Positions 9,001 to 15,000 of a DNA stretch of 64,000 nucleotides are shown piece after piece. The stretch lies in the NCBI RefSeq assembly GCF_057098645.1, contig NZ_CM169472.1. The stretch is one strand, 5' to 3'. How positions within the stretch are numbered: the stretch's first letter is position 1; every line of letters begins with the position of its first letter. The position numbers are program-made.

Positions 9001-12000
9001 ATTCTTCCAGCATGTTTACTGTCACGGGCGTTAAGACCTAAAACTGTCCCCGTTTCACCTATGCGTTCTCTTCCACCATTACCGTTATGTGCAACAACTT
9101 GATTTATACCTAACATTTGTGAGCATGCTAATAGTGCTTCAAGTTTAGGTCTGTAATCTGTCGAAACAGTAAAATAACGATTAAAGGATCGACAAGAGAT
9201 AGCCCGGCTAGTTTTAAACTTTTTACCATTAATTATAGTATGATGTTTTTTATTAATAATTGCCGCTAATTCGACCGGATCGAGAGCATTGGTCATTTCA
9301 TCAATAGAGACTGTTATCGGTCCTATAATGTAACGTTTTCGCTGATCATCAAAAGTTATCCCATGATGATTTGCCATTATTTTGTATTTGGAGTCATAGA
9401 AACATACAGGATAATCTTTTATCCCGTCGTAGGTATCCTCATCAAGTGGTTTCATGCGCGTGAAGTTTTGCATATAGTTACCATTGCAATTCGTTTCATG
9501 ATTTCCAGCTAATACATGGACATTTTCATTGATACTCATTATGCGTTTTAACAAATCGATGATAAATTGATCGCCACAGATATTGCTAAATCGATCGCCG
9601 GTTTGGTCGCCCAGAAACGTACATGGCGTGACTGCGTCTTTATTAATAACTAAATAAGGCTGAAGACTTTCTAAAATAATGTCTCTTCTGTTCAGGATAC
9701 TGATTATTGTATTAACATTAGTGTCAAGTTGCTCATTAAAGTTTTCCCTTAGCAATACGTTGAGAACTTCATCTTCTATATTAAGCAACTGGCTAAGGAA
9801 ATTTTCTCCTTCAGCCATGATTCCCAAATGTCCCGTTGCAAAAAGCGCGTACAAAACTGCACCAACTGAGCCATCGGTATCACCAAAATAGGTTGGTCTG
9901 GTACTTGTGGGATCAACAGGTGAACAATTGGAGAAATAGGTTCTGTCAGCGAACTGGGGTTTTATAATTGTTTCGAATTTAATATCAGATACATTGTATT
10001 GCGATATTTTCCAGTTCCAGATGGGTTTGTACGACTCAGTAACTGCAACATCATTAGCATTATCATTTACTGTCATATTATTAAGTAAATAAACAATGCT
10101 GCACCAATTAATATCGGTATTATCAAGATGGCAACCGTAATTTTTACTATTAATCGTCACAATAAACTGATAATTATTATCCCTACGTAGAATATGAGCA
10201 CGCATGCCCGATAGCATACTATATTTTTCTGAATGATTCGTTTCTATGGTAAATGATATTTTGTCATCTTGAATAGATTGTTGGAACCGTTCTATTTGCC
10301 AATCATCTATTTTTTCCACAACCTCACCGAGCATTGTCCTGGCAATACTTGATATATCATCACCTATACCATTTGCAATATACCCAAACAGTTCTTTAGT
10401 GAAGTTGGTAACATGCTCTTGCACCATATCATTTGTTGCGATTGTCGTTATACTGTCGTTAGTACCTGCCACAGTTCCAATTTTCATCTTTTACCTCATA
10501 TAATTCACCGCGAGGAATACATAGTTATCATTTAATCTTATGACATACACCTCATGTTCGATAGAAAAATAATTATATTTTGCACAAATCATTCAGCCTT
10601 AAAGCATAATATGAAATTTCTTATCTCATAGTAGAGAAAGTCCCTAAAGATTGTAGAGGCGTCATCAGTACATACCTCTACAATCGATTAAGAAAACCTA
10701 TGAAATACTGGCAGGATTAAAAAAACATACCACAGCACTCATGGAGTTTTAACGAGGTTGAAAACAACTAAGCCCTGGGACACCTTTTTTATCACCACGT
10801 TCGTTAAGTGCTATCTTCCAGGAATTTAGCCCCATGGTATAATTATCAATTTTTTGATGCTGATCTACCCCTAATCCATAATGGCCATATTTCTGTTTAC
10901 TTTTTTTGAGCGTCTGTCCACATTTGAAGATATCTTCAGGTTTTGGTCTGAAAGCAGTAGTGTTATTAAAATAATTGTCATATACAGGTGTGGATGCTAT
11001 AGCATTGCTTCTAATTAGATGGATAAGACGATCATCCATGTGTTGTTTATGTTTTTTTATTAAATATATTTGCTAATTCCTCAGGATCAATTGGGTCTTT
11101 CATCTGATTAAATGGAACCTGCAAAGCACCTAGACAATAACATTCATTTTCTTCATTTCTTATTATTCCGTGATGACTGGTTAAAACTTTCGTTTCTGAG
11201 TCATAATTACAAACATCGAGCGTTTTAATTAAGTTATATGTATCACCGGAAGAGAGTTTATGATTTGCTAGTCGTGCACTATAGTTACCATTAAAATTGA
11301 TTTCATGATTTCCAGCCAGAACGACGACATTTTTATTTATACGACTATCTTTATTACCCTCCATATTTCGCATAGAATTTAGCAAAGTAAGGATATATTT
11401 ATCACCCAAAATAGTACTAAATCTATCGCCTGTATGATCCCCAAGGAAGATACAAGGGGTAATCGCATCGCATTTTAAAAAAACATGTTGATGCAACTCA
11501 TTCAAGAACATGTCTCTCTTATCTAATAAAGTGAAGAGTTTTCCCAATTTTTTATTTTCATATGCGAATGAAGCCATGTCTTCGTGTTCTAATAAATCAC
11601 ATAATAAACTCCACCCCTTTTCCCTGATGCCTATATGCCCTGAAACGAGCAATGCATAAAGTACAGCGCCTACTCTTCCATCTGTATCGCCAAAATAAGC
11701 CGTGTTGGCATTTTGTGGGTTAATCACACCACACTGTTTATAAAAGTCTATTTTTGAAAAAACAGATTCAACATAGCTATCAAACTTTTCCTTAGTAAAC
11801 GTCTCTTTAGAGACAGCCCAACGCCAGTCAGGTTTGAAATTACCACTAAGAAGAGTAAAGAAATTTCTCTCTTTGATAGAAAACCCATCAACTTTATAAA
11901 TTATGTCTGATTTATCCCCGGAGAAATTAATAAAATAATAACCGTCCTTACGCTCAATCGTAACGGTAATGGGAGACGATAATTTTATCACATGGTTATT

Positions 12001-15000
12001 GTCTGGTATAATTGTAAAGATAAACGTGTCAGTAGTATTGTCGGCGAAACTATTATATTCTTTAATATCTATAGATGGCTCACTATTGTAAAACCATATT
12101 TTTTCTATCTGAGGACTATGTTCAGTTACGTTCCAGCAGCCATGTTGCAGGAAATAGATGATATGCAGGCCAAAATCGTTATCTATTTGCGAATGTTTAT
12201 CCAGCTTATCAATTTCAACTATCTCTGAACGATGTTTTTTATCAACCTTGCCATGGTGTTGATGATTATTAACTTTATCTGAATACTTATCTTTATGGTT
12301 TGAAGGGATGTGCTTAAATATATTGTGAAATACTTTCATAAATAACCCGTGATATTTTTGACTTGTTAGTAACAAAATAAATGATACATGTCTGAAAGAC
12401 ATATTTTCGACGATATAAAGCAATAATGCGTATATGCTCGCTGATTTTAAGCACCGAGACCATCCGGTCTTTTACCAAATAATGAAAAAGAATCCCTCCC
12501 TGGAAGATAATCGTAAAAAACAACAGAATAAGAATTAATCTTAGGATAAATATTTATTTATCATGGCCTTTTGAACTCTGAAAAGTAGCGCTCTGCAAAG
12601 TAAACCCCGCTATAGTTATGCTATGCATTTGTCTTTAATGATATCTCGTCATTGTATTAACAGGCTGAAATTATCATTAATGCACATTTCAATATTAGCA
12701 GGGATACCTGAGGAGTTTAAAGTGAACATATATATCGGGTGGCTTTTCAAATTAATCCCTTTAATTATGGGCTTGATTTGTATCGCGTTAGGTGGCTTTG
12801 TGCTGGAAAGTTCAGAGCAAAGCGAGTATTTCGTCGCGGGTCATGTGCTGATTTCTCTGGCAGCCATATGCCTGGCATTATTCACTACCGCATTTATTAT
12901 CATTTCGCAGCTCACGCGCGGCGTTAATACGTTTTACAATACATTGTTCCCCATTATTGGCTATGCGGGGTCAATTATCACCATGATATGGGGTTGGACA
13001 CTGTTAGCAGGTAATGATGTGATGGCAGACGAGTTTGTCGCCGGCCATGTTATTTTCGGCGTTGGTATGATTGCCGCCTGTGTATCGACAGTGGCAGCGT
13101 CATCCGGTCACTTTCTGCTCATTCCTAAAAACGCAGCGGGGAGCAAGAGCGACGGAACACCGGTACAGGCTTATTCTTCATTAATCGGTAATTGCCTCAT
13201 TGCCGTTCCCGTGTTACTCACCCTGCTCGGTTTCATTTGGTCTATTACGCTGTTACGTAGTGCCGACATAACTCCGCATTATGTCGCCGGTCACGTATTG
13301 CTCGGGTTAACCGCAATCTGTGCCTGTCTAATTGGCCTTGTTGCCACAATCGTCCATCAAACACGTAATACGTTCTCTTCCAAAGAGCACTGGCTGTGGT
13401 GTTATTGGGTTATTTTTCTCGGCTCAATCACGGTGCTGCAGGGCATATACGTGTTAGTCAGTTCTGATGCAAGCGCCCGACTGGCTCCCGGTATTATCCT
13501 CATTTGCTTGGGAATGATCTGTCACAGCATATTCTCAAAAGTCTGGCTACTGGCACTGGTCTGGAGACGTACCTGTTCGTTAGCCAACAGAATACCGATG
13601 ATACCGGTATTTACCTGTCTGTTTTGCCTTTTTCTGGCATCGTTTCTTGCGGAAATGGCGCAGACCGACATGGGATATTTTATTCCTTCGCGGGTTCTGG
13701 TCGGTTTGGGAGCGGTATGCTTTACGTTGTTCTCAATCGTTTCAATATTAGAAGCGGGTTCTGCTAAAAAATAATTGCAACGTACCGGATAAAACCAGCG
13801 TTGACCATTTGCGTAACGCTGGTTTTTCTTAGGTAGAATGAAATAACGCAGCATTAATGCATAGTGGTTAAGGATAAAAAAACAGCAAAGTTACTGTCTT
13901 TTTCAACCTGTTCATGTTTTATAAAGAGCTGATCACTGGGTGAGTTTTCAATCACTTTCCCTCCACCTTTTATTAAGCATGGAGGGTTTCAGCTCACGGG
14001 CTCATTAGAAAATAATCACAAGATAACCACTATCAAAATTAGCTCATTTTTAATGCGGCTCTAATAATTTTCATCTTTAGATAATAGGTCAGGACGACTT
14101 CGCTGCAATCAAATCCTGCGCACAAGCCCATGCACTCGACCACGCCCACTGGAAGTTATAGCCCCCCAGCCAGCCGGTGACGTCCATCACTTCGCCGATG
14201 AAGTACAGCCCAGGCACTTTGCGCGCTTCCATCGTCCGTGAAGAGAGTTCGTTGGTGTCCACGCCGCCGAGCGTCACTTCGGCAGTGCGATAGCCTTCAG
14301 TGCCGTTGGGTTGTACGCGCCAGTCGGTCAATGCGCTAATCAGTGCCTGTTGGTCACGCACGTTGAGCTGTTTTAGCGAAACATCCGGGATTTGCCCGAG
14401 TTGCTGTAAGCGTTCAACCAACCGCTTCGGTAGATGAACCGCCAGTGTGTTTTTCAGGCTTTGATTCGGATGTGCGTTACGCTGCTCATTCAGGAAGGTT
14501 TCGAGGTCCGCATCCGGTAGCAGATTGATACTGACAAATTCCCCCGGTTGCCAGTAGCTGGAAATTTGCAACACCGCCGGTCCAGACAAGCCGCGATGGG
14601 TGAAGAGTAAGTTCTCACGGAAAACGGTGCCGTTTTCAGCGGTAATCACGGAAGGCACCGCCACGCCCGCCAGCACCTGTAACTCTTCGAGCAACGGTTT
14701 ATGCAGAGTGAATGGCACCAGACCCGCGCGGGTCGGCAGCACGTTGAGGCCAAATTGTTCGGCAATCTTATAACCAAACGGCGATGCGCCCAGCCCCGGC
14801 ATTGACAGCCCACCGGTCGCGATGACCAGCTTTTCGCAACCGACAGTCATGCCGTTCAGTTCAAGCGTGAAACCTGTATCATCCTTCTCCACGCTCAGCA
14901 CTTCGCTACGCAATCTGACGGCCACATTGCCCTTCTCGCACTCATCCACCAGCATGTCGACAATCTGCTGAGCGGAGTCATCGCAGAAGAGTTGCCCTAA

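Follow-up and report, generated by a model that had tools for sequence, protein, structure and literature searches.

The yhiL copy in the window, the 64-kb stretch of DNA analysed here, very probably represents a genuine, young and lineage-specific allele with predicted loss of function, in which a run of six adenines has become a run of seven. Comparison with the intact CDS of E. coli O145 RM9872 revealed a single inserted A within a homopolymer at 11052-11058 on the minus strand (A7 on the coding strand, T7 on the plus strand). In intact alleles this tract is A6, at codons 426-428, and the run encodes Lys-Lys (codons 427-428). The extra A may have been added to the A6 run by replication slippage. 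The +1 frameshift at codons 426-428 interrupts the reading frame across the DUF4049 domain; the frame closes four codons after the shift, at a new TAA (11047-11049) just downstream of A7, and the resulting 430-aa product is without the last 101 residues. With one A removed, the locus encodes a 529-aa protein that matches WP_000862328.1 of RM9872 exactly. The initial annotation had placed a frameshift near 11040-11047; the frameshift is real, but its site is the A7 run. It had also held that a single-base correction restoring one continuous ORF would make this an intact gene. Deletion of one base does restore the ORF, yet the gene is not intact, since the extra A is truly present in independent assemblies. 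The "decay" of yhiL in this lineage is a single very young mutation in an allele that is otherwise intact.

At least seven independent public datasets, drawn from different projects, carry the A7 allele; over 4.3-7.3 kb they show 0-2 mismatches to the window. The tract, along with the exact 430-aa and 96-aa products, is present in the NCBI assembly GCA_029357705.1 and in the Logan assemblies ERR9385356, ERR12121972, ERR12122442, SRR5033736, SRR21585338 and SRR27225942. Relative to RM9872, the inserted A is the sole 1-bp indel in 64 kb (next to 19 SNPs), even though homopolymers of at least 6 bases occur 86 times in the window. None of the 5,426 complete RefSeq E. coli genomes carries the allele, the count among the matching complete genomes being 0 of 1,007. 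This absence, and the location of the lesion in a homopolymer, would fit a miscall in a strain that is truly A6 with an intact yhiL, and noisy assemblies do generate such artefacts, as in SCU-482, where 10 1-bp insertions are scattered over yhiL and yhiJ is frameshifted as well. The recurrence of A7 in separately assembled datasets, combined with its being the only 1-bp indel among so many homopolymers, nevertheless argues that it is not a sequencing error; we rejected this explanation and consider it very improbable. As the Logan and NCBI assemblies with A7 could share one clone, they show that the allele is real, not that it is old or widespread. It is passed on within a small clone that is related to O145 strains.

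From the ATG at 12339, the start of the RefSeq type, to the original stop (10749-10751), the frameshifted locus covers 10749-12339 on the minus strand. It is in the orthologous position, flanked by yhiM and yhiJ and on the strand of yhiJ, and the gene order pitA-yhiN-yhiM-yhiL-yhiJ-yhiY-yhiI-rbbA is identical in RM9872 and in a K-12 derivative. The N-terminal fragment of 430 aa (11047-12339, minus strand, stop included) ends in FNKKT and contains DUF6860 and the first 230 of the 333 DUF4049 profile positions. The C-terminal 101 codons, now out of frame, occupy 10749-11051 on the same strand and match profile positions 235-333. Both split ORFs described initially were recovered at their coordinates, 11047-12423 (458 aa, from TTG) and 10749-11039 (96 aa, minus strand), the latter being a mechanical ORF that opens at ATG 11039. 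The 458-aa product itself is doubtful, its TTG start at 12423 being mechanical and unlikely; the likely start of yhiL is either ATG 12339 (RefSeq, 430 aa) or ATG 12402 (other gene callers, 451 aa). Extending the locus to 12523, as was done originally, adds nothing but a spurious 69-aa ORF. The search for full-length yhiL in other E. coli, which had been suggested as a check, showed that intact copies exist, of 529 aa in RefSeq or 550 aa with the upstream start.

The adjacent yhiJ (8865-10487, minus strand) is intact and encodes a DUF4049 protein of 540 aa. YhiL and YhiJ are 37% identical over 313 aa (BLASTP, E 1e-68), and DUF4049 (PF13258, gathering cut-off 25 bits) matches the repaired YhiL with 510.6 bits, its N-terminal fragment with 401.9 bits (positions 1-230) and its C-terminal fragment with 84.8 bits (positions 235-333), so that both fragments are far above the cut-off. 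The two genes are thus tandem paralogues, as had been proposed, but the duplication is ancient. A recent event was rejected because identity in the shared domain is just 37%; moreover, the N-terminal domains differ, DUF6860 being found in YhiL only and absent from YhiJ, and the E. albertii yhiJ orthologue is separate. Between the paralogues, a perfect inverted repeat of 9 bp had been noted at 10651-10684. The repeat is present, but its perfect part is 11 bp long (10649-10659 and 10675-10685, with a 15-nt loop) and forms the core of a conserved hairpin at 10641-10694 on the minus strand. The RNA fold of this hairpin is -22.1 kcal/mol (z -5.5), a stability equalled by none of 200 shuffled sequences. 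Its left arm is invariant in 10/10 aligned sequences, and two strains have a single C-to-T change (G-C to G-U) in the right arm. A terminator scan detected no intrinsic terminator at the inverted repeat, and a T-tail is absent.

The motifs quoted in the initial annotation were all located in yhiL on the minus strand. Motif I is GDTDG (11677-11691), in which DxD replaces the DxH of metallophosphoesterases. Motif II, GDHTGDR (11422-11442), has the form GDxxxDR, with the spacing of GDELVDR in WipB (PMC5572681). Motif III is GNHE (11302-11313), and H389-H390-G391 (HHG, 11167-11175) is a candidate for motif IV. The truncated product does not, however, retain the whole motif region as had been assumed: 13 family-invariant residues lie after codon 428 (Y456, R464, P465, E468, C473, L477, Q482, H486, G488, G490, G503, L504 and N505), and the out-of-frame C-terminal part carries RPxxE (10935-10949), GHYG (10875-10886) and GLN (10824-10832), all on the minus strand. 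His486, in GH(Y/H/N)G, is a putative metal ligand of motif V, and since it is in the lost segment the 430-aa product would be catalytically dead or unstable. The 96-aa ORF would be expressed to no useful level, as no Shine-Dalgarno sequence was evident by eye in the 25 nt preceding ATG 11039.

A metallophosphoesterase fold of the PPP type is predicted for both YhiL and YhiJ and most resembles that of Legionella WipA/WipB. The only usable AlphaFold2 model was obtained with an 8-sequence alignment (core pLDDT about 75-95, mean 57, below 50 after residue 487), a single-sequence run giving a pLDDT of 33. The model suggests the alpha/beta sandwich of the PPP superfamily, and Foldseek returned WipB and WipA as the closest structural neighbours (E 3e-6 to 2e-4), with ApaH at 0.02. 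Motif I (G-D218-T-D220-G) is invariant in 8/8 aligned family members, with Asp in place of His. Motifs II (GDxxDR) and III (GNH[D/E]) are present as invariant columns, GDHTGDR having one extra residue like WipB; a GDHE variant of motif III is found in the homologue P0140. The invariant H389 (SHHG) and H486 (GH[Y/H/N]G, after a predicted strand at 481-484) appear in the order expected for motifs IV and V. By sequence profile, the link to phosphatases stays below every curated threshold. PF00149 (Metallophos) matches YhiJ with 19.7 bits (E 1.3e-3, threshold 21.5), does not match YhiL and gives weak matches in 3/8 family members; YhiJ reaches 14.1 bits with WipA_Phos (PF21663, cut-off 27), the best family member having E 3.2e-3; and T4SS_Wip (NF043030) gives 17.2 bits against a cut-off of 300. 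In hhalign, only motifs II-III of the family aligned with ApaH/PphA/PphB (52 columns, probability 2.5%, E 0.018), and His486 was not placed. Neither the single protein nor the family profile retrieved a meaningful match from the Protein Data Bank by sequence (best E 0.61-1.1), and scans against NCBIfam, PADLOC and PHROGs linked the proteins to no family, defence system or phage. A full-text search of the literature on yhiL, yhiJ and DUF4049 brought up no functional study, and the name DUF4049 did not occur in any of the 30 papers listed.

WipA and WipB, Legionella pneumophila effectors with PPP-fold phosphatase structures (PDB 5n6x, 5y9o, 5nny), are 14-17% identical to YhiL, from which they differ by a DxH motif I where YhiL has DxD, and YhiL has a different N-terminal domain, DUF6860. 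YhiL has twice the length of ApaH, PphA/PrpA, PphB/PrpB and lambda phosphatase, from which an additional N-terminal region, helical insertions and the DxD motif further set it apart. To our knowledge, E. coli has no Dot/Icm system, the translocation route of WipA/WipB. yhiL is a poorly conserved accessory gene whose product is probably phosphatase-like, and intact YhiL would be a Mn2+/metal-dependent phosphatase with a phosphoprotein or a small phosphoester as its substrate. Since motif I is without the canonical His, and the H32A change of the motif I His abolishes WipA activity (PMC5454105), even intact YhiL might by analogy be a pseudo-enzyme.

At the species level, the earlier view of yhiL as a decaying copy is borne out: the gene is weakly constrained, highly polymorphic and mosaic, and has been repeatedly broken at poly(A) tracts in E. 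coli and Shigella. In K-12 and others the frame is lost at another site, IS insertions lie inside the gene in some strains (H12, H71), deletions and internal stops are also found, and the locus is missing from about 23% of genomes. Only yhiL fragments are present in Shigella, and E. albertii has a yhiL-yhiJ fusion. The overall dN/dS ratio of 0.47-0.86 rises to about 1 in the C-terminal 100 aa, and identity between O145 and K-12 is 89.2% for yhiL versus 96.5-98.6% for the flanking genes. GC content is 31-40% through yhiJ-yhiL, compared with 53-60% towards rbbA/yhiI and 41-56% towards yhiM/yhiN. The K-12 locus falls within the "promoter islands" marked in an H-NS table (PMC3661553). Intact yhiL contains nine A or T runs of at least 6, which follow from its GC content of about 33%. 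The DUF4049 family is nearly limited to Escherichia: a first homologue search gave near-identical E. coli sequences only, and a search clustered at 50% gave a tiny family of 49 representatives, mostly fragments, with P0140 as the sole distant full-length homologue. On the 3.3-kb contig of P0140, at most the last 86 bases (3210-3295) match Escherichia/Salmonella records, some of them at TnpB/transposase genes.

The K-12 pseudogene, previously annotated as two genes, yhiK and yhiL, is described by PGAP as "YhiJ/YhiL family protein, frameshifted". It is the same gene in the same position between yhiM and yhiJ, and there too a 1-bp poly(A) change in DUF4049 removes the C-terminal part. The lesions nevertheless differ. 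In K-12, as in 13C1079T and TW10828, a second tract at about codon 403 has gone from A8 to A7, whereas the lesion in the window is an A6-to-A7 change at codons 426-428; the second tract is interrupted (GAAAATGAATG) in the window allele and hence not conserved. The two alleles are 89% identical, and the exact K-12 80-mer is found in 1,008 complete genomes (the in-frame A8 81-mer in 1,747), while the window lesion is found in none. The second tract occurs, as A8 or A7, on at least two allele backgrounds, 94.5% identical. At codons 426-428, ERR4564883 has A5 and a product of 440 aa; E. coli DEC5B, with A6 to A5 as well, has a product of equal length.

Tract length in yhiL thus varies by lineage and every change switches frame (A5/A6/A7 at codons 426-428, A7/A8 at about codon 403), as in homopolymer-tract pseudogenes and contingency loci. 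With both states of the second tract common and on more than one background, and the gene hypervariable and mosaic, the poly(A) tracts could be selected, reversible switches, with A7 as an OFF phase and not decay. Known contingency loci have tracts longer than 6-8 bases, however, and those of yhiL are just 6-8 nt and unconserved, one of them interrupted in the window allele, in a gene whose many A/T runs simply reflect base composition. The same gene bears irreversible lesions (IS insertions, deletions and internal stops) which, with a dN/dS of 0.5-0.9, fit neutral decay better. Ordinary decay is therefore the better description, and a phase-variable locus is improbable. It is also unlikely that YhiJ/YhiL form an Escherichia-restricted, WipA/WipB-like PPP branch (Asp for His in motif I) with costly or antigenic products, in which yhiL is repeatedly turned off, and possibly on, through short poly(A) tracts; if this were true, A7 would be one switch state and not terminal decay.

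In principle the A7 allele could still give rise to full-length YhiL, leaving the gene functionally intact or down-tuned, if transcriptional slippage dropped one A from the mRNA or the ribosome slipped by +1 on AAA-AAA-A. Runs of Lys AAA codons are known sites of slippage for both RNA polymerase and tRNA-Lys, the shift is inside such a run, and a stop codon is close behind. But efficient slippage in E. coli needs longer runs, of about 9 or more, than A7 provides. Moreover, every other allele examined has an in-frame A6 here, with no hint of a conserved programmed event; a programmed frameshift was rejected on this ground, and such bypass is very unlikely. That the 430-aa and 96-aa products are both made and assemble into an active enzyme is extremely improbable. 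Termination-reinitiation at ATG 11039, 7 nt after the stop, would be the route, and conserved residues are kept in both pieces. Yet that ATG has no evident Shine-Dalgarno sequence, the reinitiated piece would be without residues 429-433, the break is inside a predicted helix of the domain (419-434), and a split of this kind is not a stable arrangement in any other genome.

Loss of frame in yhiL is ordinary in itself: E. coli often loses this gene in the same way, and A7 adds another young pseudogene allele to a gene whose K-12 copy was already known to be broken. For annotation, yhiL is to be flagged as "frameshifted" and not as two genes. Absent from the complete RefSeq genomes, the lesion is a clean clonal marker of a small O145-related lineage. 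Far more polymorphic than its neighbours, with its frame repeatedly lost at poly(A) tracts, yhiL offers a convenient case of gene loss in progress in nature, within AT-rich DNA that was probably acquired horizontally. Finally, the predicted fold suggests that DUF4049, a domain of unknown function, may belong among the WipA/WipB-like metallophosphatases of PPP fold, with DxD as an unusual motif, which would provide a direct biochemical hypothesis for YhiJ and YhiL.

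The window is E. coli chromosome. Over the 64 kb compared with E. coli O145 RM9872, it shows 19 SNPs, a single 1-bp indel and a deletion of 782 bp. The minus-strand gene yhiL (12339..10749) lies in the order pitA-yhiN-yhiM-yhiL-yhiJ-yhiY-yhiI-rbbA. Its single difference from the RM9872 gene is one added A at 11052-11058, which extends a coding-strand run at codons 426-428 (...FNKK) from A6 to A7; after the shift, the frame reads Thr and then a TAA stop at 11047-11049. Removal of one A from the window gene gives a 529-aa protein that matches WP_000862328.1 at 100%. The split by a frameshift, as proposed in the initial annotation, is borne out by this extra A relative to RM9872 and by the presence of A7 in independent assemblies; the interpretation given there holds in part. 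The two ORFs were found as described, at 11047-12423 (458 aa, TTG start) and 10749-11039 (96 aa). The start is ATG 12339 in RefSeq and ATG 12402 for many other gene callers (550 aa for the full-length protein), so that the N-terminal product has 430 or 451 residues instead of 458. The paralogy with yhiJ (8865-10487) was also upheld: the two proteins are 37% identical across 313 aa (E 1e-68). Pfam DUF4049 was found in both yhiL pieces, well over threshold (401.9 and 84.8 bits), and DUF6860 is present in the N-terminal piece and absent from YhiJ.

That a sequencing error produced the extra A is very improbable. The window holds 86 homopolymers of at least 6 bases, yet the yhiL A7 is the sole 1-bp indel in 64 kb, and A7 recurs in other assemblies. 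Proteins identical to the 430-aa and 96-aa products are recorded in other assemblies, the loci that encode them sharing TTTAAT-A7-CATAAAC, and the A7 gene is found in NCBI assembly GCA_029357705.1 and in Logan assemblies ERR9385356, ERR12121972, ERR12122442, SRR5033736, SRR21585338 and SRR27225942; the SRR5033736 assembly is 100% identical to the window across 4.8 kb. On these grounds, the A7 allele is real and inherited within a small clone. The A7 sequence is found in no complete RefSeq genome, with no exact match among the 1,007 that hit the yhiL 80-mer; the other matches listed comprise 29 with A6 and SCU-482 with A8. This last complete genome (NZ_CP053247.1) carries 10 scattered 1-bp insertions in yhiL, a pattern that fits assembly homopolymer errors rather than biology. 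Its yhiJ is likewise flagged as frameshifted.

The family alignment contained YhiL alleles, YhiJ, the E. albertii YhiJ (P0123) and P0140, a 720-aa protein that is the only distant full-length relative. Invariant blocks are GDTDG (YhiL 217-221), GDxTGDR (300-306), AGxHE (342-346), NGN (350-352) and HxG (389-391). The residues Y456, R464, P465, E468, C473, L477, Q482, H486, G488, G490, G503, L504 and N505 are also invariant, and because they follow the frameshift, the truncated product does not keep the whole motif region, contrary to what had been suggested from the sequence.

The yhiL gene is far more polymorphic than its neighbors. Between O145 and K-12, identity is 89.2% for yhiL, 97.4% for yhiJ and 96.5-98.6% for the flanking genes. 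Among the strains compared (L001-L010), yhiL nucleotide identity ranges from 88.8 to 100%, and seven of them share an identical YhiM protein. Across six intact alleles, dN/dS is 0.47-0.86, rising to ~1 between allele classes in the last 100 codons. The alleles are mosaics: their C-termini are of two types, deeply diverged from each other (dN 0.2-0.28) and shuffled among the alleles, which indicates recombination. The locus is absent from ~23% of complete genomes. Full-length yhiL does exist in other E. coli, since 6 of the 10 sampled alleles are intact (529 aa in RefSeq, or 550 aa) and four are frameshifted. K-12, 13C1079T and TW10828 have in common an A8 to A7 change at ~codon 403, seen in the K-12 locus (L002:5414-5493) in GAAGAAAAAAAATG; this tract is broken up in the allele of the window. 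Of 4,162 locus-carrying genomes, 1,008 contain the exact frameshifted K-12 80-mer, which sits on two or more allele backgrounds; the in-frame A8 81-mer occurs in 1,747 genomes. At codons 426-428, ERR4564883 has A5, giving a 440-aa product, and the DEC5B product is of equal length. Insertion sequences interrupt yhiL in H12 and H71, Shigella carries fragments, and E. albertii has a yhiL-N::yhiJ-C fusion. In some E. albertii (P0122/P0123), a 430-aa chimera combining a YhiL-like N-terminus and the C-terminus of YhiJ lacks motifs II-IV, as if the tandem paralogues had been joined by deletion.

The DUF4049 family is tiny, with 49 representatives, mostly fragments, among 50% identity clusters of 1.84 billion proteins; named members come from E. 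coli, Shigella and E. albertii. The GC content is 31-40% in the yhiJ-yhiL block, 53-60% on the rbbA/yhiI side and 41-56% on the yhiM/yhiN side, and the AT-rich DNA was probably acquired horizontally. The K-12 yhiL gene and the yhiL/yhiM spacer count among the listed 'promoter islands' and are marked in an H-NS table (PMC3661553). The sole distant full-length DUF4049 protein, of 720 aa, is encoded at L011:1071-3233 (Logan ERR10017540); its N-terminal region is long, rich in Pro/Ser/Ala and probably disordered, and the protein retains GDTDG, GDFTGDR, GDHE, SHNG and GHNG. The end of its contig resembles DNA in Escherichia and Salmonella records, some at TnpB or transposase genes.

We have strong confidence that the window carries a null or strongly hypomorphic allele of yhiL that is young and specific to its lineage. 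The gene is weakly constrained, and slippage at short poly(A) runs would have led to its repeated loss in E. coli. Phase variation, in which the run would switch the gene, is unlikely; bypass of the frameshift by slippage is less credible still, and an enzyme working as two YhiL pieces is the most remote of these readings.

The inverted repeat reported between the paralogues is present, with perfect arms of 11 bp (10649-10659/10675-10685) rather than 9. As RNA, this conserved hairpin (10641-10694) is very stable, folding at -22.1 kcal/mol (z -5.5). Its left arm is invariant in 10/10 aligned sequences, in two strains the right arm differs by one G-C to G-U change, and the loop is variable. A terminator scan at this hairpin found no T-tail and made no terminator call; without a T-tail, it does not appear to be a canonical terminator, and it may mark the 3' end of a transcript, act as a stabiliser or serve as a binding site.

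Elsewhere in the window, at ~50250-50255, minus-strand gadA lacks 782 bp internally relative to RM9872 (record ~4246596-4247376), and a short direct repeat, TACAGG, marks the junction. The lost DNA was not found anywhere else in the window and its length is not divisible by 3; gadA therefore appears to be inactivated in this strain. In RM9872, RefSeq places a frameshifted 'hypothetical protein' pseudogene (L012:27658-28774; corresponding to window ~27317-28433) between arsC and slp.

Sequence searches with DUF4049 proteins reached no solved structure. Several members weakly match Metallophos (best E 1.3e-3), WipA_Phos (3.2e-3) and NCBIfam T4SS_Wip (2.1e-3), all under the curated cut-off. An AlphaFold2 model of YhiL, built on an 8-sequence alignment, has a mean pLDDT of 57, with mainly 75-95 in the core (170-480). 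Foldseek with this model returned the Legionella phosphatases WipB and WipA (E 3e-6 to 2e-4), followed by E. coli ApaH (0.02). The motifs defined for WipA and WipB are DxH, GDxxDR and GNHE, with GDELVDR in WipB and D180...D184-R185 in WipA; H32A in the DxH motif abolishes WipA activity, and the C-terminally truncated WipA435 is inactive (PMC5454105, PMC5572681). The YhiL GDHTGDR has the GDxxxDR spacing in common with both, whereas motif I is DxD in DUF4049 and DxH in the Wip proteins. Together, the weak profile matches, the Foldseek hits and the motif spacing point to a PPP-type metallophosphoesterase fold with a DxD motif I, the Wip effectors being nearest. His486, in GH(Y/H/N)G just past a predicted strand, is likely the motif-V metal ligand. 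The yhiL event is an ordinary pseudogenising frameshift, and the predicted fold of DUF4049 is a useful by-product of its study.
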